Assembly: GCA_965226195.1 (NCBI GenBank)
Contig: OZ245333.1
Span: 2,344,275-2,408,274, forward strand
Direction of reading: 5' to 3'
Length of the DNA stretch: 64,000 nt
Source: Oligoflexales bacterium
Lineage (GTDB): Bacteria > Bdellovibrionota_B > Oligoflexia > Oligoflexales > JAPPIL01
Shown here: positions 41,889 to 59,294 of the stretch, in pieces
How positions within the stretch are numbered: position 1 is the stretch's first letter
Layout of the letters: the number at the start of each line of letters is the position of its first letter
Notes under the pieces: generated by a model
Told to the model about the DNA's origin: nothing
What the model saw: the letters and a program-made list of their open reading frames with translations, nothing else
The model's database searches: none
Made by a program: the position numbers and the translations under genes

Positions 41889-43436
41889 CTAAAACCCACT
41901 GCTGACACTGTATTTTTTGCGCAAATAACTTCGCAACCACACCGAACTGCCAGTCATCAATAAGACAATTACTACTAACAGAAGGGTAGAAGCATACACC
42001 AACGGCTTGGCAGCCTCAATGTTTGGTGATTGACAAGAAATATCGTAAATATGAAAGCCAAGATGCATAAACTTACGATCGAGATGCAAAAGAGGAAACG
42101 TGCCATCGATCGGCAAACTCGGTGCAAGCTTCACTACACCTGTAATCATCAGCGGCGCAACCTCACCCGCAGCACGTGCCATCGCTAAAATAAAGCCCGT
42201 TAAAATACCCGGTGATGCCGCCGGCAACAACACCCGCCACAGTGTCTGCAAGCGTGTTGCCCCAAGTGCCAGCGACGAGTCACGAAATGCACTCGGAATA
42301 GCACGCAGTGCCTCTTCCACCGCCACAATCACCACTGGCATAGTGAGCAGACCGAGACTGAGGCTTGCCCATAGCAGACCTCCCGTGCCAAAGGTTGGCT
42401 CTGGCAACGTCTTGGCAAAAAACAATTCATCAATGCCACTACCCAAACCATAAATAAAAAAGCCCAATCCAAAAATACCAAACACAATCGATGGTATGCC
42501 GGCAAGATTATTCACAGCAACCCGCACCAATTGCAAAAAAAATCCGTGTCCAGCATAAACACCGAGATATATTCCCGCCAGCACCCCAAAGGGAAAAGAC
42601 GTAATGCTCATAATAAAAACTAACAATACCGTGCCAAAAGCTGCAGGGAACACACCCCCTTCCATGTTTGCCTCACGTGGCTCGTCGAACAACAACTCAC
42701 CAACTTTTTTCGCATAATGCACAGTTTTAGCAAAAATACTCATACTGCTAGGCTGATAGAAGCGAATTATGTCAGAAAGACGAATGCTTTTTTCCTTACC
42801 ATCTGTGGTAATAAACAAAGCACGATAAGTGTCGAGTTCCTGCTCCAATGTCGCCACCTGCTTGTTTTGTGCCTCAATCAGATATTGGTAACGACTAATG
42901 CTCTCCTGATTGACAGGCGTATTTTTTTCTTCAGCCCACAGTTGATCGTTATACGTACCCACCAACGTGTGTATTTGATCAATACGCTCAGACAATTCTT
43001 CTATTTCGGGATGCAGCTCTTCGGTAACAAAATAGTTCTTGATGTGAGATGGGTTATTTTCAGCAAGATACCCGATAAAATTACCGTATTCAACTCGCTC
43101 AATGACATAGATGTCAGGTGGATAAGAAGTTTCATCCACTGTGTCGGCAGTTATCCACTTGAAATCATGACCGCTGACATCGCGATTCGCAGTCTTGAGT
43201 TGCAAGCGATACAACTTGTCGTTACGCCATTCTTTTTTGATAATCTCGCCAGCAATAACATCACCGCTAGTAGTCACAATACGAACAACATCACTTGGCC
43301 ACAAAGCACTCAAGCCATTGATAACAATGATGGCGAAGAAGCCCACTGTCATCAGCATTACCAACGTCATACCTGCAGCAGTTACCCATACCCAAGGTTC
43401 GCCGGCACCCCAGAATTTTTTTTTACAAATTGCCAT
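41889..43436 (-). CDS. pstA: Phosphate ABC transporter permease, long form
   Basis: 515 aa. N-terminal TM, then a large extracytoplasmic insert, then the PstA core ([40 protein letters not shown]). Confidence 0.85.
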
Positions 43437-45615
43437 AGCGCTTTCTCAAACCAGTGCGCACCAATTCCGCCACGGTGTTGAACATAAAAGTTAACACGAA
43501 CAACACCACCGCACACAAGAACAGCGTGCGATACAGCGTGCTGTTGACAGGTGCTTCGGGCACTTCTACGGCAATGTTTGCTGCTAGTGTGCGCATGCCG
43601 TTGAACGGACTAAAGTCAATGATGGGTGTGTTGCCTGTCGCCATCAGCACAATCATCGTTTCGCCCACTGCACGTCCAAAACCAATGATTGCCGCGGCAG
43701 CAATGCCCGGACTTGCCGACGGCAACACCACACGCCAAATTGTCTGCCAGCGGCTTGCACCAAGTGCCAACGATGATAACGGCAAGGCTTTGGGAATGTT
43801 GTCGAGACTGTCTTCTGAAATAGAAAAGATTATCGGAATTACGGCAAAGCCAAGCCCAAAAGCTATGATAATACTGTTGCGTTGATCGTATTGCATTCCT
43901 ACTACATCGTAAAGCCACGTGCTGAAATCGCCACGAAAAAAATAATTTTCCACTGGAGGAGTCAAGTAATAAGCACACAGTGCCGCTACTGCGACGACTG
44001 GCACAAGAATCATAAACTCACGCTGTCGTTCAAAACGTTCTACAAAAGTAAAATTACGCAGCTGTGCCCACAAAAATAAAAACAGCAAAAAAACTAGCGG
44101 TAAGGTTATGATACTCAATAAAAAAGTGACGAGAAAATTTTGCAAAAAAGGCGCAAGCCATAACACAGCAAGAAATCCAATTACCACAGAAGGCAACGAA
44201 GCGAGCACCTCTATAGCAGGCTTGATGAAGGCTTTGAAGGCTTTGGAAGCAAACTGACTGGTGTAAACCGCGGCAGCAATCGACAGTGGCAACACTAGCA
44301 GCAGGGCATACAGAGTGCCCTTGAATGTGCCAAAAATCAGAGGCACAAGGCTTAGCTTAGGCTCGAAATCATCTGTGCCACTCGAAGACTGCCACACGTA
44401 AGCAGGCTGAACGTAGCCCTCATACCAGACGCGCTGCATCAAGGTGGCAAAGCTGATTTCTGCGTGCGGTGCGTCTATACCCCACAGAGCAGCGGTTTTG
44501 AAGGCATTAACTGTTACCAACGCATTGTCACGCGGAGACAAGGCAAGCGTGTGCCGCAGTCCTTCTGTTGCAGGAATATAACGCACCGTTGCCGCATTGG
44601 TGAGAACGTGCAGTGCCAGCCCGCCACGAGCATCGAGGGCGGCAAAAAATTTGCTGCGTCCTGCTTTGCTGAATGCTTGCACCGCTGCTGGTAGCGAGGC
44701 GAAAGTTTTGAACCGCACCAGCTTATTGCCCTTTGCCGCTTGCCATGCAGACAGCTGTCCTTCTGTGTCACCGACAATGAAGGAGTTGTCGCCATAGACG
44801 AACTTAAGTGCCGTCACCGCGGTAGCACTAACTTTATTACTAGTCATGGTGCTGCCGCCGTCTGTGTTTATCTTGATGAAGGTGACTTCACCCTGGGCGT
44901 TGCCTGCTACTACTTTTGTAGCATCAGCACTAACATCGAGTGCCGTCACCGCGGCGAGACGGAAAGATAGGTCGAGTTGCTGCTGCTGCTGTTCGTCGTC
45001 GCTGACACTGAAAATATCGTCGGCTTCCTCCTCTTGCACATCTTCTGCAGGAGGAGGGGAGGTGATGGTAAGTCGATCGTTATCAACTGCGAACAGAATG
45101 TTTTTCTTTCTAATGGCTGCAAATTGTGGTGAGCGGAGAAGCTGCCGTTGATACAAGAGCACAGGCGTGGCATTAACATCAATTGAACTGATCACACCGT
45201 CGCTCCACACTAGAGTGTGTTGTGCCGCGCGCTCGCTTTCCACTGCCGTGATGGTGGCATTGCTGGCAGGACGCAAGCGATAAGTGCTCTGCACGCTGTG
45301 CCCGTCGATGTTATGCACCGTGACACGACCATGTGTTTCGATGCTGTATATCGTCTGGAGGTGCTCGTCACTACCAGCGGCAAGCACTGCAGACGAGGTG
45401 GAGAGGCGCTGTTCAGCTAACTGCTGCACACCCGCGGAATAGAACAGCGGCAATGCCACTGTGGTTATCAGCAACAAAATGCCAACGGTAGCGGCAATCA
45501 CCAATAAACCACCGCCCTTGATGACCCACGTGGCACACGCGTCGGCAAGGTGCGCAATACGTGTGCGGCGACCAGTATAGTTAGCAACTGTTCCCATACC
45601 GCAAGTATCTTTCAA
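43423..45615 (-). CDS. pstC: Phosphate ABC transporter permease, long form with ~400-aa N-terminal extracytoplasmic domain
   Basis: 730 aa. C-terminal PstC core (SLDNIPKALPLSSLALGASRWQTIWRVVLPSASPGIAAA). The N-terminal domain has repeated strand motifs (VVAGNAQGEVTFIKI, FIVGDTEGQLSAWQ, AALDARGGLALHVL) suggesting a beta-propeller. Overlaps pstA by 14 nt. Confidence 0.85.
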   Translation of the reverse strand: MKDTCGMGTVANYTGRRTRIAHLADACATWVIKGGGLLVIAATVGILLLITTVALPLFYSAGVQQLAEQRLSTSSAVLAAGSDEHLQTIYSIETHGRVTVHNIDGHSVQSTYRLRPASNATITAVESERAAQHTLVWSDGVISSIDVNATPVLLYQRQLLRSPQFAAIRKKNILFAVDNDRLTITSPPPAEDVQEEEADDIFSVSDDEQQQQQLDLSFRLAAVTALDVSADATKVVAGNAQGEVTFIKINTDGGSTMTSNKVSATAVTALKFVYGDNSFIVGDTEGQLSAWQAAKGNKLVRFKTFASLPAAVQAFSKAGRSKFFAALDARGGLALHVLTNAATVRYIPATEGLRHTLALSPRDNALVTVNAFKTAALWGIDAPHAEISFATLMQRVWYEGYVQPAYVWQSSSGTDDFEPKLSLVPLIFGTFKGTLYALLLVLPLSIAAAVYTSQFASKAFKAFIKPAIEVLASLPSVVIGFLAVLWLAPFLQNFLVTFLLSIITLPLVFLLFLFLWAQLRNFTFVERFERQREFMILVPVVAVAALCAYYLTPPVENYFFRGDFSTWLYDVVGMQYDQRNSIIIAFGLGFAVIPIIFSISEDSLDNIPKALPLSSLALGASRWQTIWRVVLPSASPGIAAAAIIGFGRAVGETMIVLMATGNTPIIDFSPFNGMRTLAANIAVEVPEAPVNSTLYRTLFLCAVVLFVLTFMFNTVAELVRTGLRKRYGNL

Positions 45616-46102: not shown

Positions 46103-47533
46103 CTAACTAGCCTCTGGTTCTGGAATTTTGTTGATTGTCGTGGGCACGCTCTCGATCGCCGGCGTTGCTGGCTGTTCTTTAGTCACAGGCACTTCGAGTT
46201 CTTTGAAAGCCAGTACTTTAGGCATGACGCGGCTGTCCCATGAACTGTTGGCTCTGTTATAGCGCTCGACGGTCTGATGCAATGATTTGCCTATCGATAC
46301 GTAGTGCTCGGCAAAAACAGCAAGACGATCGTGCAACTCCTTGCCAAGTTCGCTGATTTCACGTGCCTTCTCGACTACTCGCACCTGCTTCCACATCAAC
46401 GCAATCGCTTTCAGCAATGCTAACAAAGTCGGTGGAGTGACAATTACCACCTTCTTGTTAAGTGCCCACTCGATCAAATCAGTGTCGCGTTCCAGCGCCG
46501 GCAAAAAAGCAAACTCTGGCAATACCATTACTACAAGATCGGTGGTGTTCAGTAATTGCCAGTATTCCTTGCTTGACAGGTCTTTGACATGTCCTTTGAC
46601 CTGTTCGACGTGACGGATGAGTGCTTGCTCCTTTTGCTCCTCGTTGTCCGTATCGAAGGCCTCCATCAGCGCGGTAAGCGATACTTTGGAGTCAAGAATG
46701 ACACGGCGATCTTCGGGCATATTGACGATGACATCGGTGCGCAAACGCTGACCTTCAACATCGAAGCTGTCCTGCACACTGTAGTCAATGTCTTTGCGCA
46801 ACCCTGATAGCTCCAGCACACGTTCCAGCTGTATCTCTCCCCAACGACCTCGCACGCTTGGTTTGCGCAGAGCAGATGCTAGCGCCTGTGCTTCCTTGCC
46901 CAAGTAGCGGCTTTCCTCAATCATCTTCGCCATCTGTTCCTTGAACATCGAGGCATTGGCAATACTGTCACGGTCAAGGTGTTCGATTTTTTCCTTCAGC
47001 GGGCGCACAATCTTGTCAATTTCTTCTTGTCCCAGCTTGAATAGCTTGTCAGCATTGCTTTGAAAATTATCACCCTGTGTCTTCAGTGTGTCGGCTGAGA
47101 GGGAACGGAAAGCATCCTTGAAGCGCTGCTCTAGAGTGTCACGCTCATTAAGCTGCTGCTGTGCGGTGTCAAGCTTGGTTAGCAGCTCGCTCTTCTCCGC
47201 CATCAACCCCTGTATCTTCTGCTGGAGCTCGTCGCTACGCTCCTTCCACGTTGTCTTCTCTCGCTCGATGCGCAAGTTCAAGTCACGTGCCGCGGCGAGG
47301 CTTTCCTTGAGACCTGCGCATTCATCACGCACACGGCCAAGTGGTTCAAGCTGATCCTGCAGGCGTGCTAGATTGCGTTGGTTATGGTCGAGATTGCTCT
47401 GCAGCGTGGCATTAACTGCCGTCAGTTTCGCCAACCGTGCTGGGCTGTCCGACTTACGCCACAACGCCAGTGCTGCCACCAATATCAGCATCATCGCAAT
47501 GACTATAAGCAACAATGCCGTCATCATCTCCAC
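46103..47533 (-). CDS. rmuC: DNA recombination protein RmuC
   Basis: 476 aa. N-terminal TM, long coiled coil, and a C-terminal nuclease-like domain (RTDVIVNMPEDRRVILDSKVSLTA...VVMVLPEFAFLPALE) typical of RmuC. Confidence 0.85.
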   Translation of the reverse strand: MEMMTALLLIVIAMMLILVAALALWRKSDSPARLAKLTAVNATLQSNLDHNQRNLARLQDQLEPLGRVRDECAGLKESLAAARDLNLRIEREKTTWKERSDELQQKIQGLMAEKSELLTKLDTAQQQLNERDTLEQRFKDAFRSLSADTLKTQGDNFQSNADKLFKLGQEEIDKIVRPLKEKIEHLDRDSIANASMFKEQMAKMIEESRYLGKEAQALASALRKPSVRGRWGEIQLERVLELSGLRKDIDYSVQDSFDVEGQRLRTDVIVNMPEDRRVILDSKVSLTALMEAFDTDNEEQKEQALIRHVEQVKGHVKDLSSKEYWQLLNTTDLVVMVLPEFAFLPALERDTDLIEWALNKKVVIVTPPTLLALLKAIALMWKQVRVVEKAREISELGKELHDRLAVFAEHYVSIGKSLHQTVERYNRANSSWDSRVMPKVLAFKELEVPVTKEQPATPAIESVPTTINKIPEPEAS

Positions 47534-47683: not shown

Positions 47684-48529
47684 ATGAAATTTTTGATTTT
47701 GCTAATGTTGATGTTTTCCTTCCAGCGTGTTGAGGCAGGGGGGATTGAGAAGGTTGCTGTGTCAAAGACACGCTGGCTGCAACGTTTTGCCTCATCAAAC
47801 AGCGTGGTGCAGAAAGCACTAGAGGGTGGCTCGATGCTCACACTGTGCCTTAGCTTGGTCTTGTCATCATGCTCATTACCCGACTACTACAATCCCAATC
47901 GCAACCCTGAGGCAGCAGAAAGTCAGTCCCTCAACAGCAAGCCAGTCGAAGTTGCCCCGCCTATCGAGCTTGCTCCCCCCGAAGCTTTTCAGCCTGCAGA
48001 AAGGGAGAATCCATATAGAATAGATGTTCACTACCTGAAAGGCTTTGGTGGTATCAGCCAAAGTGACATAGATGACTACATGTTGGCAAAGGACAGCTTG
48101 CCTGCTAGCTTTTACAAGGATGTGTTGATTCACTACCGAAGTGGGGATAACAATTTCGTTGGTGTCGCCCAGCTCAACAGCCACGCTGACAATACGGTGC
48201 GTGTTATCGACCTCGGTACTGGCAAGGTGCGGGACACCATCAGCACTGAACGCATCGAGGGCATCTACGTCTTTATGCACGAAAACTACGGCGACCACTT
48301 CATTAAATTTTCCGCCATGCACCTGCAAGAACTGGAGGGTGACAGCTTTGGAGAGCTAGGTTGGGCAACCATCTACGCCAAGACCCGCATTATCTTCAGC
48401 AGTGACTATCAAGCAGTGCGGGTCTATGGGGTGCAAAAATCTCCCGGCAAAATTTTCAAGCTGTCTGATGCACAAAGATTCCGGGGATTTGTGCATAGCG
48501 ACCATATCATCAATCTAGATGGTAACTGA
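47684..48529 (+). CDS. Tandem-signal secreted beta-rich protein, family member P1
   Basis: Start at ATG 47684 (SD AAGGAG). The leader is MKFLILLMLMFSFQRVEAGG, then TRWLQRF, then MLTLCLSLVLSSC. The C-terminal region is homologous to P2-P5. Confidence 0.7.
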   Translation: MKFLILLMLMFSFQRVEAGGIEKVAVSKTRWLQRFASSNSVVQKALEGGSMLTLCLSLVLSSCSLPDYYNPNRNPEAAESQSLNSKPVEVAPPIELAPPEAFQPAERENPYRIDVHYLKGFGGISQSDIDDYMLAKDSLPASFYKDVLIHYRSGDNNFVGVAQLNSHADNTVRVIDLGTGKVRDTISTERIEGIYVFMHENYGDHFIKFSAMHLQELEGDSFGELGWATIYAKTRIIFSSDYQAVRVYGVQKSPGKIFKLSDAQRFRGFVHSDHIINLDGN

Positions 48530-48626
48530 GATAAGAGCTTATCTGGAGCATCTCGTGACCAGCTGTACCTGTCACGAGTGCGTTTGAAACTGAAATATGT
48601 AGATGCGGTATTCCTACTGCCATCTA

Positions 48627-48809
48627 TTAATTGGGAGGAGACGGTGACCGCTGAGGAGACGTGAGCTGCTCAACGTAATTTTTTAGTGTTACGGCAGATT
48701 CTTGTATCGAGATCAGCTCTTTCTCCACCGATTGCCTTAGGGATTTTTCTAATGCCGCAAACTTGTCTTCCAACATTTTAACGAGGACGGCAAATTGCTC
48801 ATCACTCAT
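48627..48809 (-). CDS. Small coiled-coil protein, unknown function
   Basis: Start at ATG 48809 (SD GGAGGA, 5-nt spacer). 60 aa: MSDEQFAVLVKMLEDKFAALEKSLRQSVEKELISIQ... Confidence 0.45.
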   Translation of the reverse strand: MSDEQFAVLVKMLEDKFAALEKSLRQSVEKELISIQESAVTLKNYVEQLTSPQRSPSPPN

Positions 48810-48899
48810 AACTGTCCTCCGTCTATGGTCACAAACCATGCAATCTGAACCTTACCATCAGGCTACCTCAATGCACATAAAGCGAACGTTGAGGAAATC

Positions 48900-48999
48900 G
48901 AACCGCAAGGGCAGGCTGTAGTCAATCGACCGCATACAGCGTTCAGACTTATTACCTGAACAGCCGCAAGCCACCATGCTTGTCATGGTGGCAGTTGAC
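48900..48999 (+). mobile_element. Orphan IS200/IS605 right end (tnpB 3' tail + RE hairpin), potential stand-alone omega-RNA scaffold remnant
   Basis: About 95 nt align with the reverse complement of 4873-4975. It still encodes QGQAVVNRPHTAFRLIT*, against QGQAAVNRPHAAFRLVA* in the full copy. The hairpin is GCCACCATG-cttgt-CATGGTGGC. It ends in AGTTGAC exactly as the full copy does. Confidence 0.7.
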
Positions 49000-49029
49000 A
49001 GTTTGGTACCTCACCTAGACAAGATTATG

Positions 49030-49057
49030 TTGACAGCACGCACCACCTTGAGATAAA
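49030..49057 (+). promoter_or_regulatory. Sigma70-like promoter of P2
   Basis: TTGACA (49030-49035), a 16-nt spacer, then GATAAA (49052-49057). The SD AAGGGAGGGGG lies before ATG 49100. Confidence 0.35.
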
Positions 49058-49099
49058 AGCCCCGCAACGTTATCTGCGTTTAAATTAAGGGAGGGGGTT

Positions 49100-49768
49100 A
49101 TGTTGACACGTGGTGTGGTGCTTGTTGCCGTTGCTGCCTTTATGTTTACGTTACCTGCTCGTGAGTTAAGTGCCACTTCGCATCCATCGCGATGGGGGCA
49201 AAGGCTCAAGAGTGTTTTTGACCTGCGGGACGCGAGTCCGCTGGACAAGTTGAGAAAATTGAGCATTGGCACGGCACTTGTTGCTATGCTAGGGTGCTCG
49301 GCGCTTGTGATTCATGATTTCGTTAGTGATAATCGTGTAGTGCAGTCAGATGTCATGCTCGACACAATTATCAGGTTTGATGATGATATTCTCGGACGCA
49401 CCTTCCACTACAGCGTCGGTGATAGTCATTACTATGGTGAAGCACTGGAGTGGAATTATCCGTATAATAAAATGCTGCTGTCTTACTTCTACGAGAATAG
49501 GAAGGTACTCGTTCCAGTGGAGTATCTGCAAGGTAAAGCCATCATGTGGCACGATCATAGCCACGCAAGGGTAGCTTTCATCGACCCTGACCCTAACAAC
49601 TATCTTATGCATGGCAAGGTGATGAAGGTTTTCGACAGTGACTACTACTATGTCATTGCTGATGCACAAGAGGATCGTGATGGGGTTGTATCATCTCTTG
49701 ACGAGCGCCGCATGGTCTTCGTGCCGAAGAAACTCATTACCGCTATTGAGCCACCGCCGATGTATTGA
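49100..49768 (+). CDS. Tandem-signal secreted beta-rich protein, family member P2
   Basis: 222 aa. The leader is MLTRGVVLVAVAAFMFTLPARELSA, then SRWGQRL, then KLRKLSIGTALVAMLGC. Family C-terminal region (GRTFHYSVGDSHYYGEA...HGKVMKVFDSDYYYVI). Confidence 0.7.
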   Translation: MLTRGVVLVAVAAFMFTLPARELSATSHPSRWGQRLKSVFDLRDASPLDKLRKLSIGTALVAMLGCSALVIHDFVSDNRVVQSDVMLDTIIRFDDDILGRTFHYSVGDSHYYGEALEWNYPYNKMLLSYFYENRKVLVPVEYLQGKAIMWHDHSHARVAFIDPDPNNYLMHGKVMKVFDSDYYYVIADAQEDRDGVVSSLDERRMVFVPKKLITAIEPPPMY

Positions 49769-49810
49769 AGTGGCGGGTGCATAGATGAGTATTATTGTGT
49801 TGGATTGGTA

Positions 49811-50566
49811 TCAGTAATAAACCATTTCCAAAGCCTCGCTTGAGTATTGAGCGATGAAGCGGTCGAGGGTTGTGGCTTGTTGGTTGGATAGCGAGGTAAA
49901 TTTTACCCCGATGCCCTTATCTCTTTGTGTTGCTACGCGGACGAATTCACCTTCAATCACTAGTGGCTGGTGTGCTTTATCGAGAAAAATGTTCATGCTG
50001 ACGATTGTGCCTTTCTCGAAGTTAATTCTTGTTGCCAGTAAAACTCCGCTGCGAGAGATGTTGGCAATGCCACACTGGTAGCGCGTATTTTCCCAGACAA
50101 ATTCAACCCGACCAGCAATTTTTACCCGCTCATCCACACGTGACTGCTGTTTGAGCAACGTCCTGATTTTTTTGATGAAAATTTTGCGTGGCAGCGGCTG
50201 AAGCACGAACAAGTCAGCACCAGCTTCCAGCACACGCTTCTCTGGCACACCTTCCACCTGCACGCTGGTTGCGACCAGCAAGATGTCTGCAGTCGAAGAA
50301 CGGCGACGAAACTGATGGATGAGATGGAGGGCATCGACAACGTTTGTGTCAAGGTTGATGATGATGAGGCTGATGTTCTCTTTGATCGCTAAAGCTGCAA
50401 TAATTTCAACAGCTTCTTGCTTATCGGCAGCATGCAGCAATGCCTGTGCCGATGCATAGCTGTGCAGTGCTTCGGCTCGAAAGCCCATCTCGCGAAAGCC
50501 TTTTAAATCAAGGTGTTGTGCAACATCACGCCCGTCGATATTCAAGATTCCGATCTGCTTACTCAT
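49811..50566 (-). CDS. Receiver-like domain + PilZ domain protein (c-di-GMP binding predicted)
   Basis: 251 aa. SD GGGAGGGG. The N-terminal CheY-like fold has LIIINLD but lacks the usual conserved Lys (LQP instead of KP). PilZ motifs are RVDER (RxxxR) and NISRSG (D/NxSxxG). Confidence 0.7.
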   Translation of the reverse strand: MSKQIGILNIDGRDVAQHLDLKGFREMGFRAEALHSYASAQALLHAADKQEAVEIIAALAIKENISLIIINLDTNVVDALHLIHQFRRRSSTADILLVATSVQVEGVPEKRVLEAGADLFVLQPLPRKIFIKKIRTLLKQQSRVDERVKIAGRVEFVWENTRYQCGIANISRSGVLLATRINFEKGTIVSMNIFLDKAHQPLVIEGEFVRVATQRDKGIGVKFTSLSNQQATTLDRFIAQYSSEALEMVYY

Positions 50567-50631
50567 AGCTAGCCCCTCCCAGTCAACATTCGGCAGTTGA
50601 CGGAATTGCTTTAGTTTGCCAAAAAACTATC

Positions 50632-51369
50632 ATGGGTACGGAACGAGTAAGAATTGACCAGTTGCTGTTAGAACAAGGCATGATTGCCTCGTTATCGCTG
50701 GCACACGCCAAAATTATGGCGGGGCAGGTCTTCGTCGAAGAGGTCAAGGTTACCAGTCCTGCGCTACGAGTCTCACGTTCAGCCACACTGCGTGTCAAGG
50801 CAAGCAAGCGATACGTCAGTCGTGGCGGCAAAAAACTTGAACTCGCCCTCAAAGACTTGCGGGTGCAAATAAAGAACAAGCAGGTGCTCGACATCGGCTC
50901 TTCGACAGGAGGCTTCACCGACTGCTGTTTGCAACATGGCGCAGCAACAGTGATCGCAGTCGATGTCGGTACAAATCAACTGGCGTGGAACTTGCGCATT
51001 GACCCGCGGGTGCAAGTTTTTGAAAAAACCGACATCCGCACTTTTGCGGGGCAAAATTACCAACATAGCGACCTCGTGGTCGCTGATGTCAGTTTCATTT
51101 CGCTGACTTCAATCTTGCCATCAGTATTTGCCAACCTGCCGCACGCGGAATTTTTAGTGCTCGTCAAGCCGCAGTTTGAGTTGCCACGCCACCTAGTGCC
51201 ACGTGGCGGTGTTGTGCGTGATAATAAGCTTCGCAATTATACACTGTTGAGAATTAAAAATTTTTTCAAACAACACGGCTATGGAAATTTTGTTTCTATT
51301 GATTGCAGTATCTGTGGTACTAAGGGCAATCGGGAAATTTTTTGTCACGCTAAAATGGTTGCAAAATGA
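50632..51369 (+). CDS. tlyA: 16S/23S rRNA (cytidine-2'-O)-methyltransferase TlyA
   Basis: 245 aa. S4-like N-terminus (RIDQLLLEQGMIASLSLAHAKIMAGQVFV), YVSRGGKKLELAL, and the SAM motif VLDIGSSTGGFTDCCLQHGA. Confidence 0.85.
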   Translation: MGTERVRIDQLLLEQGMIASLSLAHAKIMAGQVFVEEVKVTSPALRVSRSATLRVKASKRYVSRGGKKLELALKDLRVQIKNKQVLDIGSSTGGFTDCCLQHGAATVIAVDVGTNQLAWNLRIDPRVQVFEKTDIRTFAGQNYQHSDLVVADVSFISLTSILPSVFANLPHAEFLVLVKPQFELPRHLVPRGGVVRDNKLRNYTLLRIKNFFKQHGYGNFVSIDCSICGTKGNREIFCHAKMVAK

Positions 51370-52388
51370 CAATGTTCTCTCAAAACAAGCCGAAGGTTAT
51401 TGTTATTCACACGGGTGGCACGATTGGCATGGTGCAGGGCAAGGATGGCGTGTTGCGCCCTCTGCAAGACCCACAGACGCTGTTGCGCTCTCTGCCTGAA
51501 CTTGCTGACATCGCCGAGCTTGAGCTGCGTGTGCCGTTCAACCTTGACAGCAGCAACATTCAACCGTCGCATTGGCTACAGCTGGCACAAATTGTGCGTG
51601 CAGAGCAAAATAACTGCGTTGGTTTTGTGATTTTGCATGGCACTGACACGATTGCCTATACTGCTGCGGCACTCTCATTCTTGCTTGCCGACGTGACGCG
51701 GCCTATTATTATCACTGGTGCACAGCGACCGCTACGCATGTTACGCACCGATGCCCGTACTAACATCATTGATGCGGTGGAACTGGCAACCAGAGATATT
51801 CCTGAAACTGTGGTGCTGTTCAACAACAAGCTATTGCGCGGCAATCGTGCTCAAAAAATTAGCAATGATCGCTACAGTGCTTTCCACTCGCCTAACTATC
51901 CGCCACTCGGACAGCTTGGCTTGCACGTGTCACTCAATCACGAACATATGCAACGAGAACGCAAAATTTTTTTCCCCACACCGCATTTTGAAACAAAGGT
52001 GTTATGCCTAAAACTGCATCCTGGCTTTGATGAGACACTCTTTGATATTCTGCCACCTGCAAACTTCAAAGCTATGATCCTGCAAGGCTTTGGTGCGGGC
52101 AATATCCCTCTCTGTCCCCGCATGTTGAAATGGCTTGAAGCACATAGCAAAAGCGGTCTCGTTATTGCCATTGCCAGTCAGTCACCCCGCGGTTGTGTTG
52201 ACCTATCTCTCTACGAAGGCGGACGTGAAGCACAGGCACGTGGGGCTATTTCCTGCCGCGACATGACTATCGAGACCAGCCTCATTAAAATGATGCTGCT
52301 ACAGGGCACACGTTCCGATCGCACAGAAATTGAAAAATTGTTTACGACATCGCTGGCAGGTGAACTCAATGAACAACGAGCGCACTGA
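51366..52388 (+). CDS. ansA: Type I L-asparaginase
   Basis: 340 aa. VIVIHTGGTIGM with the catalytic Thr motif, VILHGTDTIAYTAAALSF. The ATGA overlaps the tlyA stop. Confidence 0.85.
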   Translation: MTMFSQNKPKVIVIHTGGTIGMVQGKDGVLRPLQDPQTLLRSLPELADIAELELRVPFNLDSSNIQPSHWLQLAQIVRAEQNNCVGFVILHGTDTIAYTAAALSFLLADVTRPIIITGAQRPLRMLRTDARTNIIDAVELATRDIPETVVLFNNKLLRGNRAQKISNDRYSAFHSPNYPPLGQLGLHVSLNHEHMQRERKIFFPTPHFETKVLCLKLHPGFDETLFDILPPANFKAMILQGFGAGNIPLCPRMLKWLEAHSKSGLVIAIASQSPRGCVDLSLYEGGREAQARGAISCRDMTIETSLIKMMLLQGTRSDRTEIEKLFTTSLAGELNEQRAH

Positions 52389-52706
52389 AAATTCTTCCGA
52401 TGACTGCCCTCTTCTGTATTTTCTTCAGTTTTGTTTTAGAATATTGTGCAAAACTGAAGAAAATGGCAGTGATGTTGATACTTTTAAAGTAAAAAAACCT
52501 TTGCTGGTTATGGTAAGTATGTGGCTCGAAGACCCATCCCTTGCGTATTTTAGTTCTTCGTCTTCAGTTCACAAGAATTCATATGGTTATGGTAAGTATA
52601 AGGAAACACTCGACGCTACTCTAAAAAATCGTTGACAAGCTATGCAGACTGAATTAGATCACTCCTACTGTCTATTAGGCTAACCACTTTTGTGTGAGGG
52701 TATCCT

Positions 52707-53381
52707 GTGATGCGAAATCTGTTTCTGGCTGTGTTTCTAGCACATGTTCTGTCGCTGGCAAGTGCCAGCGCTACACCAACCAAACTGCCAATTTTGCGCA
52801 CAACTGCCAAAAACCTGTCATCGTCAACTAATAATGTCGGGGCCTGGCTACAGAAACTACCCCAGAAAGCACTGAAGGGTAGCACCGCAACAGCTGCTGC
52901 TACCCTCATCGCTTGCAGCAGCTTGATGATGATTGGCTGTGATCAAGGCACGCGATTGCTTGAGGTTACCGATACAGAATACGTCGATCCCATAGATGAA
53001 AACGCGGGGCAATATGTCACCTTCTATATCGATGACATTCTCTACGAAGGCTACTGGGAGCTTACCCCCGACGGTCAGCTACTAATTGAAATCGATGATG
53101 GCTACGACAAACTTGTGCTGCTTGAACATATGACCGGCCAAGTGATTAACAATCACCACGACATTGGTGCTGAAGTGCGCGTGTATGGCTTAAGAAATGG
53201 ACACGAAGTCGACAAATATGGAGAAGTAGTCGAGGTCTACGACAACGGATTCTACATTATCGAGATCGATAAGATAGTATATGTCCATAACAATCAAACC
53301 GTCTATACTACTGAAATCTTGCTCGTTAACAAAGCTGTTTTGCTAGAGGACGGTGGGTTTGAGTTTACTGACGATATCTAA
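52707..53381 (+). CDS. Tandem-signal secreted beta-rich protein, family member P3
   Basis: GTG 52707 / ATG 52710 after SD GAGGGT. The leader is MRNLFLAVFLAHVLSLASASA, then GAWLQKL, then ATLIACSSLMMIGC. Family region: GQYVTFYIDDILYEGYWE...HHDIGAEVRVYG...GEVVEVYDNGFYIIEI. Confidence 0.7.
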   Translation: MMRNLFLAVFLAHVLSLASASATPTKLPILRTTAKNLSSSTNNVGAWLQKLPQKALKGSTATAAATLIACSSLMMIGCDQGTRLLEVTDTEYVDPIDENAGQYVTFYIDDILYEGYWELTPDGQLLIEIDDGYDKLVLLEHMTGQVINNHHDIGAEVRVYGLRNGHEVDKYGEVVEVYDNGFYIIEIDKIVYVHNNQTVYTTEILLVNKAVLLEDGGFEFTDDI

Positions 53382-53398
53382 TGGTAGCCTAGACTAAC

Positions 53399-54334
53399 TT
53401 GAAACCACCAGCACTTAAGGTTGAAAACCTTACTAAGGTTTACGCATCCAAAACTGTAGCCTTGCAAAACATAAGTTTTGAGATTGCCGAGGGGAGTTTC
53501 TTTGCTCTCCTCGGCCCCAACGGTGCGGGCAAATCAACCACCATCGGTATCATCACCAGTCTCGTCACCCGCACTGCGGGACAAGTGAGCGTGTTCGGCT
53601 ACGACCTCGACCATGACCGCACAAAAGTGAAAGAAATGATCGGTGTCGTGCCACAGGAGTTTAATTTTAACATTTTTGAAAAAGCTGAAGATGTCGTAAG
53701 AAATCAAGCCGGCTACTTTGGTCTGTCCCGCAACGAAGCTAGTGAACGCAGTGCCGAACTGCTGAAAAAACTCAAACTATGGTACAAGCGCCATGCCACC
53801 TCACGCAGTCTTTCAGGCGGCATGAAGCGCCGCCTGATGCTCGCCCGCGCCCTTGTCAACCGCCCCCGCTTGCTAATTCTCGACGAACCAACCGCTGGTA
53901 CAGACATCGAAATACGCTACCAAATGTGGGACTTTCTCAAAGAGCTGAACGACAGTGGCACAACCATTATCCTCACCACCCACTACCTCGAAGAAGTTGA
54001 AAAACTATGCGATCACGTCGCCATCATCGACAAAGGACATATCATCGAAAACGCCAGCCTTAACAACCTGCTCGCAAAACTACGCAGCCAATCGTTCCTC
54101 GTTACCGTTGAAAATGGCTTCACAGAAAAAAACACACGACCACTGCCCAATGGCACAGAGGCATATAAAATAACCAAAATTGACGATCATACACTGGAAA
54201 TAAACATTACCGCCGTTGATATGCTCGGTGATGCCCTTAATAAGCTGAGTGCAGCTGGCATCAAAATTAAAAATATCACCAACAAAACTAACCGCGTCGA
54301 ACAATTATTCCTCAACATAACCAGGGGGCAATAA
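53399..54334 (+). CDS. ABC transporter ATP-binding protein (ABC-2 exporter type)
   Basis: GPNGAGKSTTIG, LSGGMKRRLMLARAL, LLILDEPTAGTD. TTG start 17 nt after the P3 stop. Confidence 0.85.
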   Translation: MKPPALKVENLTKVYASKTVALQNISFEIAEGSFFALLGPNGAGKSTTIGIITSLVTRTAGQVSVFGYDLDHDRTKVKEMIGVVPQEFNFNIFEKAEDVVRNQAGYFGLSRNEASERSAELLKKLKLWYKRHATSRSLSGGMKRRLMLARALVNRPRLLILDEPTAGTDIEIRYQMWDFLKELNDSGTTIILTTHYLEEVEKLCDHVAIIDKGHIIENASLNNLLAKLRSQSFLVTVENGFTEKNTRPLPNGTEAYKITKIDDHTLEINITAVDMLGDALNKLSAAGIKIKNITNKTNRVEQLFLNITRGQ

Positions 54335-54339
54335 CGACG

Positions 54340-55113
54340 ATGGGATTCAAGCGCCAATGCTTCGCCCTCTACACCTTGATGCGCAAGGAATGCGTGCGTA
54401 TCATCAGAATCTGGAGTCAATCGATCATTCCACCTGCCATCACTATGACGCTGTATTTTATCGTCTTCGGCAAGCTTATCGGCAACAAAATCAGCATGGC
54501 AGAAGGCTTCTCCTATATGCAGTTTATTACGCCGGGACTGATTATGATGAGCATTATCTCCAACTCCTACATGAACGTCTGCTCCTCCTTCTTCAGCCTC
54601 AAATTCCAAAAAAGCGTCGAAGAATTGCTGGTCGCCCCCATCAACAACTTCTGTATCGTGCTCGGTTTCGCAGGCGGTGGGGTTTTTCGCGGCCTGCTAA
54701 CGGGCACAACCGTCTGCATCATCTCTCTGCTGTTCACCAAAATACAAATCCATAGCTGGCTCATCATCATCACCTTCTCCGTCCTCGCAGCCCTGACCTT
54801 CTCACTCGGCGGCTTCCTCAACGCCCTGTTCGCCAAAAAATTCGACGATATCAGCATCATACCAACCTTCATCCTCATCCCCCTGACCTACCTCGGCGGC
54901 GTGTTCTACAGTATCAACTCCCTGCCCGAAATATGGCAAAAAGTTTCCCTTGCTAACCCCATTCTCTACATGATAAGTGGTTTTCGTTACGGCTTTCTCG
55001 GTGTCAGTGACATGAGTGTCTACACCGGCTTCGCTATTCTTGCTTCCTTTGCCGTTGCGCTGTTCCTCCTCGATGTTTTTCTGCTACACAGAGGCACCGG
55101 CACCAGAACTTAA
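54340..55113 (+). CDS. ABC-2 type transporter permease
   Basis: 257 aa, six hydrophobic helices, directly after the ATPase (5-nt gap). Confidence 0.8.
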   Translation: MGFKRQCFALYTLMRKECVRIIRIWSQSIIPPAITMTLYFIVFGKLIGNKISMAEGFSYMQFITPGLIMMSIISNSYMNVCSSFFSLKFQKSVEELLVAPINNFCIVLGFAGGGVFRGLLTGTTVCIISLLFTKIQIHSWLIIITFSVLAALTFSLGGFLNALFAKKFDDISIIPTFILIPLTYLGGVFYSINSLPEIWQKVSLANPILYMISGFRYGFLGVSDMSVYTGFAILASFAVALFLLDVFLLHRGTGTRT

Positions 55114-55132
55114 CTACATAGAGGACACCACC

Positions 55133-55819
55133 ATGAGAAATTTTATCCTCACGCTACTGCTCTGCATCACCCTTGCCTTCAACAGCACCAATGCCTTGCA
55201 CGCACAGGGCAACAAGGGCAATCGCATTGCCAAAGTTTTGGGGATCAAAGAGAGTAGCTACACCTTGTTCCAACAACTACTGCTGACAACAGTGTTTGCC
55301 TGCACTACATTTTCCTGTGGCACAGTGAAGCCACATCTCTATACAATCGGCATTCTCAACCCCAGCAGTGCCATGCAAGCTGAGACCGTCGCTGACGAAA
55401 TGCTTGCCATCCAGCGTGATTTTGATTCAGAAGTAGAAGACGACCAGCAAGTCATTCGTAACCACGTCTATGTCGTCAAGCCAATCGAGCATAAGATTAT
55501 CCTCGCTGAAGTCGTCAAAGAAGCGGATAGAACTATTAACATACAAGGCTACGCCGATAAATACGAACTGACCATCGACCCTGAGGCAATCGAAGGCTAT
55601 CTCATCGATGACCACCCCAACGTCGGTCGCGTCGTGAAACTAACGAGTAACGCGGTCGGCATCTCTCATCTCAACGGGATCGTCTTCGCCGTCTACAACA
55701 ATGGTATCCATGCCATCAAAATTACCGGCAAAACTGACCTTGACGGCAAGCAAGAAAAACTACACGAAAAAGACGATGCTCCGCACGTTCGCTATGCCTA
55801 CGAATATCAGCTGCAATAA
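55133..55819 (+). CDS. Tandem-signal secreted beta-rich protein, family member P4
   Basis: Start at ATG 55133 (SD AGAGGA), 19 nt after the permease stop. The leader is MRNFILTLLLCITLAFNSTNALHA, a basic linker, then LLLTTVFAC. Family region: NHVYVVKPIEHKIILAEV...DHPNVGRVVKLT...NGIVFAVYNNGIHAIKI. Confidence 0.7.
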   Translation: MRNFILTLLLCITLAFNSTNALHAQGNKGNRIAKVLGIKESSYTLFQQLLLTTVFACTTFSCGTVKPHLYTIGILNPSSAMQAETVADEMLAIQRDFDSEVEDDQQVIRNHVYVVKPIEHKIILAEVVKEADRTINIQGYADKYELTIDPEAIEGYLIDDHPNVGRVVKLTSNAVGISHLNGIVFAVYNNGIHAIKITGKTDLDGKQEKLHEKDDAPHVRYAYEYQLQ

Positions 55820-55822
55820 AAC

Positions 55823-55851
55823 TTGACACTGCTTGCTCGATGTTTTAAACC
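55823..55851 (+). promoter_or_regulatory. Sigma70-like promoter of P5-surE
   Basis: TTGACA (55823-55828), a 17-nt spacer, then TAAACC (55846-55851). Confidence 0.35.
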
Positions 55852-55897
55852 CACCCCATCGAGATTTCATCTATAAACTAGGGTAGGAGCTATGCAG

Positions 55898-56560
55898 ATG
55901 AGAAGCAGTGTTTTGGTGCTCGCATTAGTGGCGTTGTTCGGCCTAACTACGGTAGGTCACGGCAAAAATGTGCGTCTGCTCGACGCAGCTCAAAAGCGAA
56001 TAGCAAGCCTGTCGCACGGGGCAAAGCGGCTATTTGTCAATGGAGATGGTGATTACGCCTTGTTGAAAAAACTCTACGTAGGTGCAAGTCTTGCGATAAT
56101 CGCTTGTACCCAAATGTCCTGCGGTGGTGGTGCTGCCTTGCAAGGAGTCACACAACAACAGCAATATGTCCGCAGCCCTGAAGAAATTCTCGGTCGCCAT
56201 GTACATTTTGTCGCTGATGGACGTGACTATGTTGGTCAAGTGGCAGAGTCCACCAACACCAATACAGTCGAGATCGACCTCTACGACGGCAGCATCATGG
56301 AGATAAAGACGAGCGAAGTGCGGGGCCTGCATATCGAGGAACATCACGATGAGGGGAGGCAGGTAAAACTTAACAGTGCCGAAGAAGGTCAAACATTTCT
56401 GCATGCTTATGTAGTTAAAGTCTACGACAGTAATTATTATGAACTTTTCGTCGGTGCATATTATGATAATGCTGGCGAACTGCAGTTCACGGAATTTCCC
56501 TATGTAATTGTCACACATTTTGACAATATTGTTGAGGTCTTTGGAGAACCATTCGATTGA
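55898..56560 (+). CDS. Tandem-signal secreted beta-rich protein, family member P5
   Basis: ATG 55898 has better spacing from AGGAGC than ATG 55892. The leader is MRSSVLVLALVALFGLTTVGHG, a basic linker, then LLKKLYVGASLAIIAC. Family region: GRHVHFVADGRDYVGQVAE...HHDEGRQVKLNS...AYVVKVYDSNYYELFV. Confidence 0.7.
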   Translation: MRSSVLVLALVALFGLTTVGHGKNVRLLDAAQKRIASLSHGAKRLFVNGDGDYALLKKLYVGASLAIIACTQMSCGGGAALQGVTQQQQYVRSPEEILGRHVHFVADGRDYVGQVAESTNTNTVEIDLYDGSIMEIKTSEVRGLHIEEHHDEGRQVKLNSAEEGQTFLHAYVVKVYDSNYYELFVGAYYDNAGELQFTEFPYVIVTHFDNIVEVFGEPFD

Positions 56561-57312
56561 AAATTTTACTGACCAACGACGATGGTATCAATGCTGAAGG
56601 TCTGGCCACCGCAATTGCGGTGGCCGAAGCGCGTGGTAAATTTCTTGCCGTCGCCCCATTCACAGAGCAATCTGGCAAGAGCCACTCGATTACCAAAGAC
56701 GAACCACTGCGCTTGCGCAAGATACGAGAACATGTCTACGCTCTTGGCGGCACACCCGCTGATTGCGTCAAGTTTGCCCTGCACGAACTGCTAGCAGGCA
56801 CAAGCCCTGACCTTGTCATTAGCGGGATCAATCACGGTGCAAATCTCGGTCAAGACACCATTTATTCAGGCACAGTCGCCGCAGCAATCGAGGCTGCCAT
56901 GAACAATCTGCCTGCCATAGCGCTGTCACTCTGTGGTCTACCACCCTATCACTTCGACACTGCAGAGGCGGTGCTACGTCGTATTATTGAGAAGTTTGCC
57001 ACCAGCGTGCCTGAAGGACGTGTCCTCAACGTCAACATTCCCAACATTCCCGTCGATGCTATTAAAGGCATGCGCTTCGCCACGCTCGGCACGCGCCACT
57101 ACGAGAAAAAATTCTACCAAGCACCCAACCCGCGCAACATTCCCTACTACTGGATGGGCTGGACTTTCGGTGGCTTTGACGCAAAAACCCACGGCAGTGA
57201 CTGCGTCATCGTCGATGGCGGCTACGTCAGCCTCTCAATTCTCAAGCCATCAATGCTCGATCGCACTATGAACGAAAAATTTACCAACAAGCATAGCTTG
57301 ATCGATTTTTGA
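56557..57312 (+). CDS. surE: 5'/3'-nucleotidase SurE
   Basis: MKILLTNDDGINAEGL...VISGINHGANLGQDTIYSGTVAAA is the SurE signature. The TTG start overlaps the P5 stop (TTGA). Confidence 0.9.
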   Translation: MKILLTNDDGINAEGLATAIAVAEARGKFLAVAPFTEQSGKSHSITKDEPLRLRKIREHVYALGGTPADCVKFALHELLAGTSPDLVISGINHGANLGQDTIYSGTVAAAIEAAMNNLPAIALSLCGLPPYHFDTAEAVLRRIIEKFATSVPEGRVLNVNIPNIPVDAIKGMRFATLGTRHYEKKFYQAPNPRNIPYYWMGWTFGGFDAKTHGSDCVIVDGGYVSLSILKPSMLDRTMNEKFTNKHSLIDF

Positions 57313-58385: not shown

Positions 58386-59177
58386 TCAATATAATGATGT
58401 TGTTCGGTAATTGTTTGGGCAGTAAACAAAATACCTGTATTTGCTGGGTTGGTAGTAGGTGTTGTTGAAGCGATAGTTACCCCACCACAGGTTGGGAGAG
58501 TGAGCGGAACGATAATACGGCCGATAGTAGCTGCGCCAATAGGTAACCGGAGAGGAGGAGCTATAGTTGTTATAGCCGTAAAGGAGCGGGCGATTGTTGT
58601 TATAGCGATATCCACCACGATTGTTGTTATAGCGATATCCACCACGATAGTGCCTATAATGGCGGCGATGATGCTTGCCATAACGGTAGCCATACTTGTT
58701 ATTACCATGACGGTAGCCATGATAACGCTCACGTTTTCCATAGCCACCATAACTATAACCATCTAGGTCATGCTGGGTTGAACGACGACGACCATACTTA
58801 TGGTCTCTCGCAATGTGACGCAGATTGTGCGCTAAACGAGCACGATCAGAGCGTCTGCCCTCGCCCCACACGGAAGCCATCCGCTCACCACTGAGCTGCT
58901 CTTGAGCAAGATCTTGGTCAAAGTGCCTGACTTCCGCCTTAGCACCCGCACGTAGCTCACCCTTTTTATCGACTGGCACGCGCACCACCATGCTGCTAGG
59001 GAGGCTTTCATGCTCTGCCTTAAGTTGCCGTCTGTCATCGCTGGGAAAACGATCAACATCGTTGAGATCATCAAGGAAAACCGGATGATCACGCCGTTCA
59101 TCGGAACAACCGACCATTACCAACATCGCCAGTGCAACAGCACTGGTAAGATTCCTTACAGAAAAAATAACACACAT
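58386..59177 (-). CDS. Lipoprotein with Tyr/Arg/Gly/Asn-rich low-complexity C-terminal half
   Basis: Start at ATG 59177 (SD AAGGAGGA, 7-nt spacer). MCVIFSVRNLTSAVALAMLVMVGC lipobox. The tail reads GYSYGGYGKRERYHGYRHGNNKYGYRYGKHHRRHYRHYRGGYRYNNNRGGYRYNNNRPLLYGYNNY... Confidence 0.7.
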   Translation of the reverse strand: MCVIFSVRNLTSAVALAMLVMVGCSDERRDHPVFLDDLNDVDRFPSDDRRQLKAEHESLPSSMVVRVPVDKKGELRAGAKAEVRHFDQDLAQEQLSGERMASVWGEGRRSDRARLAHNLRHIARDHKYGRRRSTQHDLDGYSYGGYGKRERYHGYRHGNNKYGYRYGKHHRRHYRHYRGGYRYNNNRGGYRYNNNRPLLYGYNNYSSSSPVTYWRSYYRPYYRSAHSPNLWWGNYRFNNTYYQPSKYRYFVYCPNNYRTTSLY

Positions 59178-59294
59178 AACCAAATCCTCCTTCGTTAATA
59201 GGTAACAATACCACAAGTTGAGTAAATAACAGAATCAAACAAGGTTTTTCAAGTAAAAAATTAAATTATTTTTTAACTATTTATTAATATTGAA

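Follow-up and report, generated by a model that had tools for sequence, protein, structure and literature searches.

The 64,000-nucleotide (nt) stretch of Oligoflexales DNA analyzed here (the window) contains five genes on the plus strand, which we refer to as P1 to P5. The genes belong to a previously undescribed, lineage-restricted protein family that has been found so far only in Oligoflexales-type bacteria. The five products share an unusual bipartite leader that ends at a lipobox-like cysteine and, after it, two consecutive strand-rich modules, which in P1 and P5 are predicted to fold as SH3-like barrels. Three of the genes, P3, P4 and P5, are closely packed around a gene pair that corresponds by sequence to yadG and yadH of Escherichia coli, which encode an ATP-binding cassette (ABC) exporter. 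We tentatively favor the view, to which we give somewhat less than an even chance, that P1 to P5 are lipid-anchored periplasmic binding modules and that P3, P4 and P5 are lineage-specific partners of YadGH.

A fast-diverging family with a predicted tandem-barrel fold

Open reading frames (ORFs) and the junctions between them were read directly from the sequence of the window. An initial annotation had placed five related ORFs on the plus strand at 47684–48529, 49100–49768, 52707–53381, 55133–55819 and 55898–56560, and all five are present in the ORF list. In the case of P3, the ATG at 52710, which has GAGGG upstream of it, is more likely to be the start codon than position 52707, and translation of P5 may begin at 55892 or at 55898. 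The members of the family in the window, with the evidence for each, are as follows.

P1, 47684 to 48529, plus strand: divergent family member of 281 amino acids (ORF list; hhalign profile match; AlphaFold2; Foldseek)
P2, 49100 to 49768, plus strand: family member of 222 amino acids, convergent with a PilZ gene (leave-one-out hidden Markov model, E 3.6e-10)
P3, 52710 to 53381, plus strand: family member of 223 amino acids counted from the ATG at 52710, first gene of the cluster (leave-one-out hidden Markov model, E 1.4e-8)
P4, 55133 to 55819, plus strand: family member of 228 amino acids (leave-one-out hidden Markov model, E 8.3e-8)
P5, 55898 to 56560, plus strand: family member of 220 amino acids, hub of the family (leave-one-out hidden Markov model, E 2.1e-14; AlphaFold2 model)

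All-against-all BLASTP comparisons identified P5 as the hub, with matches to P2 (E 3e-9), P3 (E 8e-9) and P4 (E 7e-6), and hidden Markov models (HMMs) from which one member had been left out retrieved P2 to P5 with E values of 8.3e-8 to 2.1e-14 and with zero false hits. Judged by these comparisons, P2 to P5 clearly form a family. P1, which was missed by the leave-one-out HMM, appears to be a divergent member. Its assignment is weaker than that of the other four but is supported, because a profile of P1 and three homologues matches the family profile (hhalign probability 92%, E 5.7e-7, 111 columns across both modules) and because P1 has the same leader architecture, the same strand order in its structural model and the same class of best fold match in the PDB. 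The layout of P1 consists of a bipartite leader with Cys63, a proline-rich tether, an additional hairpin and helix, and then the two barrels. Thus, the shared two-module region of about 110 residues, which had originally been aligned by eye, survived both the leave-one-out HMMs and hhalign.

The remaining 55 kb of the window contain no further copy of the family. The five copies of the initial description are a lower bound for the genome: the 2,951,284-bp contig that includes the window also encodes P0022, a protein of 277 amino acids with 44% identity to P1, and the source genome therefore has at least six copies.

How large is the family, and how widely is it distributed? Among 5.8 billion clustered proteins, P5 has 18 relatives, which are 44–98% identical to it, and P1 has four. 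An exhaustive profile search of 1.84 billion representative proteins returned 100 clusters at E ≤1e-3, of which 46 were at E ≤1e-10, and most of the clusters are 200–250 residues in length. One profile hit, the 859-residue repeat protein P0080, was judged to be spurious and was excluded. A homologue search with the whole-family alignment added a subfamily of 160 residues among the matches listed. None of the relatives found by the P5, P1 and profile searches carries a name in any source. Only two taxonomically labelled genomes contain the family, both of them Oligoflexales metagenome-assembled genomes (2.84 and 2.18 Mb), and no relative was detected in JGI metagenome contigs (two scans) or in IMG/VR (one scan).

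Single-linkage clustering divides the family into a large group (the P5, P3 and P2 types), a P4 group, a P1 group, a multi-span group and several smaller groups. Proteins of the multi-span group have several membrane spans and contain the second barrel as two or three copies. A tandem pair from this subgroup lies next to ffh at a related locus (L016, 7001–8191 and 8423–9346), and one member of the pair has two copies of the second barrel. Another architecture is that of P0110 (468 amino acids), in which a bipartite leader clearly homologous to that of P5 is joined to the barrel modules and then to a C-terminal part that resembles ankyrin repeats when inspected by eye.

The initial annotation had been unable to name a family, and our searches agree: none of the five proteins is assigned to a family by Pfam, NCBIfam or PADLOC, and none has a sequence match in the PDB. 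The weak library matches that the five proteins did produce (XOL-1_N, RNase P p29 and HmuY) fell far under the cut-offs. Likewise, comparison of 104 family members with Pfam gave no meaningful match, comparison of the family profile with PDB sequences gave nothing at E values up to 10, and a literature search on Tudor-like periplasmic lipoproteins and on double signals with a lipobox gave nothing relevant. Family orthologues are 44–64% identical to the copies in the window, as compared with 74–90% for the ATPase, permease, SurE, AnsA and TlyA proteins encoded at the same loci. The divergence of the family is about threefold faster than that of its neighbors, and this rapid change fits exposed binding surfaces better than it fits a core enzyme.

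The fold was investigated with AlphaFold2 models of P5 and P1. The predicted local distance difference test (pLDDT) score exceeds 90 at residues 90–215 of P5 and at residues ~112–278 of P1, and the leader is of low confidence in both models. The domain region of each model contains five strands followed by a further five, and the strand order of P1 is that of P5. When the models were compared with the PDB by Foldseek, tandem Tudor-type barrels ranked first, if weakly. The top match for P5 was the tandem Tudor domain of 53BP1 (E 4.4e-3, probability 1.0, template-modeling [TM] score 0.44 on the target), and the next matches were FXR2, Agenet, Sgf29 and Spt5 KOW2-3. The top match for P1 was the tandem Tudor domain of FMRP (E 7.2e-3, probability 0.93), with 53BP1 and FXR2 ranking lower. 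Neither model had a PDB match at E ≤1e-3, and the Pfam models for Tudor, Agenet and chromo domains matched none of the five proteins (E up to 1) and none of the 104 members (E up to 0.01). Because no match reached 1e-3 and no sequence relationship was found, the term Tudor-like holds as a description of the fold and not as a statement of superfamily membership. With that restriction, the tandem SH3/Tudor-like barrels proposed at the outset are borne out by two independent models and by Foldseek, and P1 and P5 are predicted to share a tandem five-stranded SH3-like fold. No confident HMM or structural hit to a characterized family was obtained. The barrels of P5 are located as follows.

Barrel 1, residues 96–146, 56183 to 56335, plus strand: five strands (AlphaFold2 pLDDT ~90 or higher, strands at 101–145)
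Barrel 2, residues 147–215, 56336 to 56542, plus strand: second barrel (AlphaFold2 strands at 155–215; column statistics)

The positions conserved in barrel 1 (in P5 numbering) are G99, V102, F104, G108, Y111, G113, V115 and G143. Barrel 2 opens with an H-x-D-x-G motif and contains a V-[YF]-D-x-G hairpin (V-Y-D-x-G in P5). Column statistics for the 104 members indicate that the conserved residues are mostly glycines and core hydrophobics. The junction between the barrels is marked by the motif G143-x5-H149-x-D-x-G, in which the histidine is present in 90% of the members. In P0041, P0044, P0047 and P0060 the second barrel is repeated two or three times, always with H-x-D-x-G at its start. We also considered whether barrels 1 and 2 arose by internal duplication, but no duplication was detectable (hhalign probability 13%, E 2e-3).

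The family resembles the Royal superfamily (53BP1, FMRP/FXR2, plant Agenet and Sgf29) and the tandem KOW domains of Spt5 in having two consecutive five-stranded SH3-like barrels and in strand-turn motifs of the types h-x-h-x-[FY]-x-D-G and Y-x-G-x-V. It differs from these proteins in that no sequence relationship is detectable, in that TM scores are 0.3–0.45 and the barrels have another relative orientation, and in that its members are bacterial and have an export leader, a lipobox and a junction motif, H-x-D-x-G, of their own. Bacterial SH3b-type domains, which in envelope proteins are extracytoplasmic binding modules, often for peptidoglycan, are likewise small SH3-like barrels, but the family has no match to any SH3 Pfam model.

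Could the proteins be eukaryote-like Tudor readers that are delivered to a host cell, where they would bind methylated lysine or arginine? The top fold matches are indeed eukaryotic methyl-lysine readers (53BP1, FMRP/FXR2, Agenet and Sgf29), P0110 combines the leader and barrel modules of the family with putative ankyrin repeats, and genes for an ankyrin protein and a CesT-type chaperone are present in related genomes. We nevertheless regard this explanation as very improbable. Sequence similarity to the Tudor, Agenet and chromo Pfam models is lacking, a membrane tether speaks against delivery, and no secretion-system gene appears at the locus in the window ORF list. Moreover, conservation is concentrated in glycines and core hydrophobics, and a conserved aromatic cage could not be demonstrated from the column statistics. 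Aromatic columns are present: F104, Y111 and Y176 are aromatic in 83%, 63% and 94% of the 104 members, respectively, values that give column frequencies rather than cage geometry.

The bipartite leader and its cysteine

The leader of P5 can be divided into three parts.

Part 1, residues 1–22, 55898 to 55963, plus strand: signal of the signal-peptidase-I type, starting with M-R, continuing as a hydrophobic core and ending in GHG (sequence reading)
Part 2, residues 23–57, 55964 to 56068, plus strand: basic linker (charge count; conservation)
Part 3, residues 58–75, 56069 to 56122, plus strand: second hydrophobic segment, with C70 and C75 (cysteine columns; alignment)

Most of the 104 members have a part 1 that begins with M-R or M-K, continues as a hydrophobic core and finishes in a polar stretch that contains small residues; in the five proteins of the window the ends are VEA, LSA, ASA, LHA and GHG. 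The linker is 30–40 residues long (median 34) and has a net positive charge, on average +4.7, in 69 out of 69 dual-leader members. The second segment, also hydrophobic, is shorter and is rich in alanine, glycine and threonine. Its two cysteine columns are occupied in 83 and 82 of the 104 members, and the residue ahead of the last cysteine is serine, glycine or alanine in 64 of 69. The window copies have the lipobox-like ends LSSC, MLGC, MIGC, TFSC and QMSC, with the MIGC of P3 being followed by D. The 20 residues past the cysteine are net negative on average, and the tether that follows the leader is short and either acidic or rich in glycine and serine. The components of a lipobox that we looked for, namely a small residue and a cysteine, a hydrophobic segment and a preceding positive charge, were all found.

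Certain relatives have a single leader. In these proteins the second segment is located at the N-terminus and constitutes a canonical lipoprotein signal, as in P0075 (MKKRMLFHVIVLLALAWGGFSGC-SGDD), and their cysteine (Cys23 in P0075 and Cys31 in P0053) aligns with the cysteine column of the family. Because the single-leader relatives are canonical, and because of the distribution of charge, we orient the second segment in-to-out. This orientation would place the barrels outside the cytoplasm and make the conserved cysteine the site of lipid attachment. The initial annotation had described small secreted proteins with a leader. This description needs refinement: the two hydrophobic segments of the leader and its lipobox-like cysteine make a lipid-anchored envelope protein likelier than a freely secreted one.

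In the orthologues of P5, leader and barrels are conserved to the same degree (pairwise identity of 0.50–0.60 versus 0.55–0.63), and hence the leader is translated and constrained. We considered the possibility that an internal start codon ahead of the second segment produces an ordinary lipoprotein, but no such codon is conserved: the codon for Leu55 of P5 is TTG in the window and at the related locus L004, is TTA at L001 and L003, and is absent at L002, and P3 has no candidate start codon near its second segment. We also considered whether the leader is a general export signal of the lineage. A search of 227.5 kb of related DNA for the leader pattern yielded 21 family members and four short ORFs outside the family, which are probably non-coding; within this DNA, the pattern is specific to the family.

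An alternative for the orientation is that the barrels are cytoplasmic, with the hydrophobic segments forming either a membrane hairpin or a cleaved signal followed by a stop-transfer anchor and with the barrels binding nucleic acid or protein inside the cell. Segment 1 has an A-x-A-like end of the signal peptidase I type in nearly all members, and cleavage there would place the linker outside and make segment 2 an out-to-in anchor. In addition, members of the multi-span subgroup (P0047 and P0073) have basic residues directly ahead of the barrels, and barrels of the Tudor, KOW and Sm-like types typically have intracellular nucleic acids or proteins as their ligands. Set against this, the positively charged linker (69 of 69) and the acidic stretch past the cysteine are the opposite of what the positive-inside rule calls for in such a topology, and the single-leader relatives are canonical lipoprotein precursors. 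Our assessment is that a cytoplasmic location is quite unlikely.

The known feature to which the leader is most readily compared is the extended signal peptide region (ESPR), an N-terminal extension of autotransporters and two-partner secretion proteins. As in the leader, charged and hydrophobic parts precede a normal signal in ESPR (n1-h1-n2-h2-c). The extension in the family differs in being 45–60 residues long, in resembling a complete cleavable signal and in being followed by a second part of the lipoprotein type, and the cargo is a small lipoprotein-like protein rather than a type V protein. The ESPR Pfam model matched none of the five proteins and none of the 104 members.

Finally, we can imagine a scheme, to which we attach little credence, in which the leader is a new type of two-step signal for export and anchoring. 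The first hydrophobic segment, the basic linker and the lipoprotein-type segment would jointly make up a hairpin of ~75 residues that is cut by signal peptidase II, and the released membrane peptide, which is conserved in sequence, or the uncut precursor, would be handled by the YadGH-type pump or would regulate it. In that case the pump, together with the three genes that flank it, would constitute a self-contained system for the maturation of an unusual class of lipoproteins.

The yadGH locus

The genes that accompany P3, P4 and P5 in the cluster, and the putative end of the cluster, are as follows.

ABC ATP-binding protein, YadG-type, 53399 to 54334, plus strand (NCBIfam drrA subfamily, E 2.1e-74; blastn)
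ABC-2 permease, YadH-type, 54340 to 55113, plus strand (NCBIfam NF011648, 374 bits against a cut-off of 225; blastn)
surE, 5'/3'-nucleotidase, 56557 to 57312, plus strand: last gene of the apparent transcription unit, outside the family (NCBIfam SurE equivalog, E 5.9e-72)
Terminator-like hairpin with a T run, 57288 to 57310, plus strand: at the end of surE (consensus scan, pattern match only)

By sequence comparison the ABC pair is yadGH: in blastn searches of E. coli genomes, the best match of the pair was yadG–yadH in 5419 of 5426. The spacing noted in the initial annotation proved to be exact. P3 (stop at 53381) and the ATPase gene (TTG at 53399) are separated by 17 nt, the ATPase and permease genes by 5 nt, and the permease gene (stop at 55113) and P4 (ATG at 55133, with an AGAGGA ribosome-binding site ahead of it) by 19 nt. 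The P5 stop codon (TGA, 56558–56560) and the surE start codon (TTG at 56557) overlap by 4 nt (TTGA). The consensus scan revealed no terminator-like site on the plus strand between 52700 and 57288, and the hairpin at the end of surE is the sole plus-strand site of its type past 52700. Given the tight spacing and the single terminator-like site at the end of surE, the six genes P3, yadG, yadH, P4, P5 and surE look like one transcription unit and are likely to be co-transcribed.

The two middle genes are the counterparts of E. coli yadG and yadH, but the setting is different. Whereas the E. coli pair stands alone between can and yadI, the pair in the window is bracketed by three genes of the family. 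The E. coli operon is reported to contain no gene for a periplasmic adaptor, and none is known for the pump (PMC13585988).

Comparison with related loci, which the initial annotation had recommended, showed that the bracketing of the exporter is kept at L001 to L003 and at L007/L008. The order P3-like, ATPase, permease, P4-like, P5-like, surE recurs at L001, L002 and L003, and L004 is the same except that it is without P4. These four loci come from close relatives (79–90% identity to the window for the permease and 82–89% for SurE), and their gene order is therefore, taken alone, weak evidence. P3 orthologues are found upstream of the ATPase gene at L001 to L004 and at L007/L008, and P4-like genes are found after the permease gene at L001 to L003, L007/L008 and L013. 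At L007/L008 (ATPase 70% and permease 73% identical), the pair comes after two family genes, one of which shares 4 nt with the start of the ATPase gene; on the other side of the pair lies a P4-like gene, and surE is absent. At L013 (permease 71% identical), a P4-like gene lies 30 nt past the permease gene and is followed by an unrelated convergent gene, again with no surE. Because family genes remain beside the exporter at L007/L008 and L013 without surE, the association is evidently with the pump and not with surE. Accordingly, we discarded the idea of a functional tie to surE, which is adjacent at L001 to L004 but not at L007/L008 or L013. As to the functional link to the ABC-2 exporter or the envelope that was originally suggested, the part concerning the exporter is strengthened for P3-like and P4-like genes, which flank it in more distant lineages, but it does not extend to P1, P2 and most other members, which have no link to any ABC transporter.

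The reading that we favor, as set out above, can be stated more fully. The barrels would lie outside the cytoplasm, tethered to the membrane through the conserved cysteine. P3, P4 and P5 would serve as binding modules, either receiving, holding or presenting the substrate of the pump or linking the pump with the envelope, and P1, P2 and the scattered copies would be binding modules of the same type used elsewhere in the envelope. Partnerships between a lipoprotein and an ABC-2 exporter are known from LanI and LanFEG, NosL and NosDFY, and LppX and DrrABC. These systems are alike in logic, in that a membrane-tethered periplasmic binding protein is found beside an ABC-2 type pump. They differ in that no similarity of LanI, NosL or LppX to the family in sequence or fold was found among the Foldseek and profile matches, and the partnership proposed here is read solely from gene order.

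Several considerations weigh against this reading. The proposed physical or functional link between P3–P5 and YadGH is drawn from gene order within one clade: all of the bracket loci have a permease identity of ≥71%, and inherited gene order therefore explains part of the conservation of the bracket. Most members of the family, including P1 and P2, are not adjacent to any transporter; P0068, P0152, P0067, P0034 and the tandem pair around P0047 are examples of such scattered members. The similarity to known folds is weak (E no better than 4e-3, TM 0.3–0.45), and H149 is the sole strongly conserved polar residue. Also, the cysteine is found at residues 57–78 (62–77 in the five window proteins), past the standard lipoprotein position; the PROSITE lipoprotein rule places it within roughly the first 35 residues. 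Last, the topology of the leader is puzzling: if part 1, which resembles a cleavable signal, were removed, the linker would end up outside and the second segment would have the opposite orientation to that needed for processing as a lipoprotein.

Some of these same facts are what would be expected if the family had no functional link to the exporter. The proteins would then be independent, fast-evolving envelope or surface proteins with a role of their own, for example in contact with a host, prey or the environment, whose genes settled at the edges of operons by local duplication (P4/P5, P1/P2 and the pair at L016) and are co-transcribed with their neighbors. Consistent with this, the majority of copies occur singly or as tandem pairs, dispersed over unrelated contexts (queA, an ankyrin protein and ffh), the family diverges at some three times the rate of its neighbors, the bracket loci all come from one clade, and E. 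coli YadGH functions without such partners (PMC13585988). On the other hand, the P3-like and P4-like positions on both sides of yadGH are exact, with overlaps or gaps of ≤30 nt, while the surE and asparaginase neighbors have changed, and the P3 and P4 types are distinct subfamilies rather than recent local copies. We consider the absence of a link to be the main alternative to the favored reading, and somewhat less probable than it.

A specific form of the partnership with the pump would be an immunity-type pair resembling LanI and LanFEG, in which a membrane-active peptide or drug is captured at the surface by the lipoproteins and then expelled by the ABC-2 pump. The ATPase scores against galliderm_ABC (6.7e-40; lantibiotic protection) as well as drrA (2.1e-74; drug resistance), and fast evolution of the binding proteins would fit an arms race. 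Furthermore, E. coli YadGH has been reported to be an antimicrobial efflux pump (PMC13585988; PMC13462070). The ATPase matches are, however, generic for ABC proteins, no LanI/SpaI-type chain was present in the top 50 Foldseek matches or among the profile hits, and the window ORF list shows no toxin or bacteriocin gene nearby. On balance, an immunity function seems unlikely.

Surrounding genes and implications

P1 and P2 lie, as the initial annotation had stated, between rmuC and a PilZ gene. The identified neighbors of the family in this part of the window are as follows.

46103 to 47533, minus strand: rmuC
49811 to 50566, minus strand: REC-like/PilZ protein
50632 to 51369, plus strand: TlyA/FtsJ-type methyltransferase
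51366 to 52388, plus strand: asparaginase

The REC-like/PilZ protein consists of a response-regulator-like domain fused to PilZ, and its gene is convergent with P2. The adjacency of a P2-like gene and the PilZ gene is kept at L003 (PilZ gene at 1431–2186) and L014 (1712–2467). The gap between P1 and P2 (48530–49099) measures 570 bp, and in the matching contig L014 an opposite-strand gene of 60 residues is called at 528–710.

Two other genes in the window deserve mention. The minus-strand gene at 43423–45615 encodes a 730-residue ABC importer permease with BPD_transp_1 at residues 443–721. Weak matches to Pfam models of the beta-propeller/WD40 type occur in the long N-terminal part of the protein, at residues ~208–370; such an additional domain is unusual for a PstC/PstA-like permease. 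A 276-residue ORF on the minus strand at 58386–59216 begins with an ordinary lipoprotein signal (…LVMVGC-SDE). The C-terminal half of its product is composed of repeats rich in tyrosine, arginine, asparagine and glycine (YRYNNNRGG occurs twice). The ORF has no Pfam match.

Related genomes contain a CesT/Tir-type chaperone gene next to pspA (L006, 1757–2179), a gene for an ankyrin-repeat protein (L011, 9432–10580) and an IS605/TnpB element with AbiEi/AbiEii (L004, 1–2240). These genes hint at a host-associated lifestyle and at mobile elements.

In summary, the analysis defines a protein family that no database names, with about 100 clusters, all of them from poorly known Oligoflexales-type bacteria, and in which Tudor-like tandem barrels would be used in the bacterial envelope. 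The leader, in which a signal of the signal-peptidase-I type is followed by one of the lipoprotein type, departs from the standard rules of export and lipidation, such that lipoprotein predictors would miss these proteins, and if it is processed as written it would be of interest to the protein-export field. YadGH is a nearly universal but poorly understood ABC-2 pump, for which the family would provide a first, and directly testable, set of candidate periplasmic partners.

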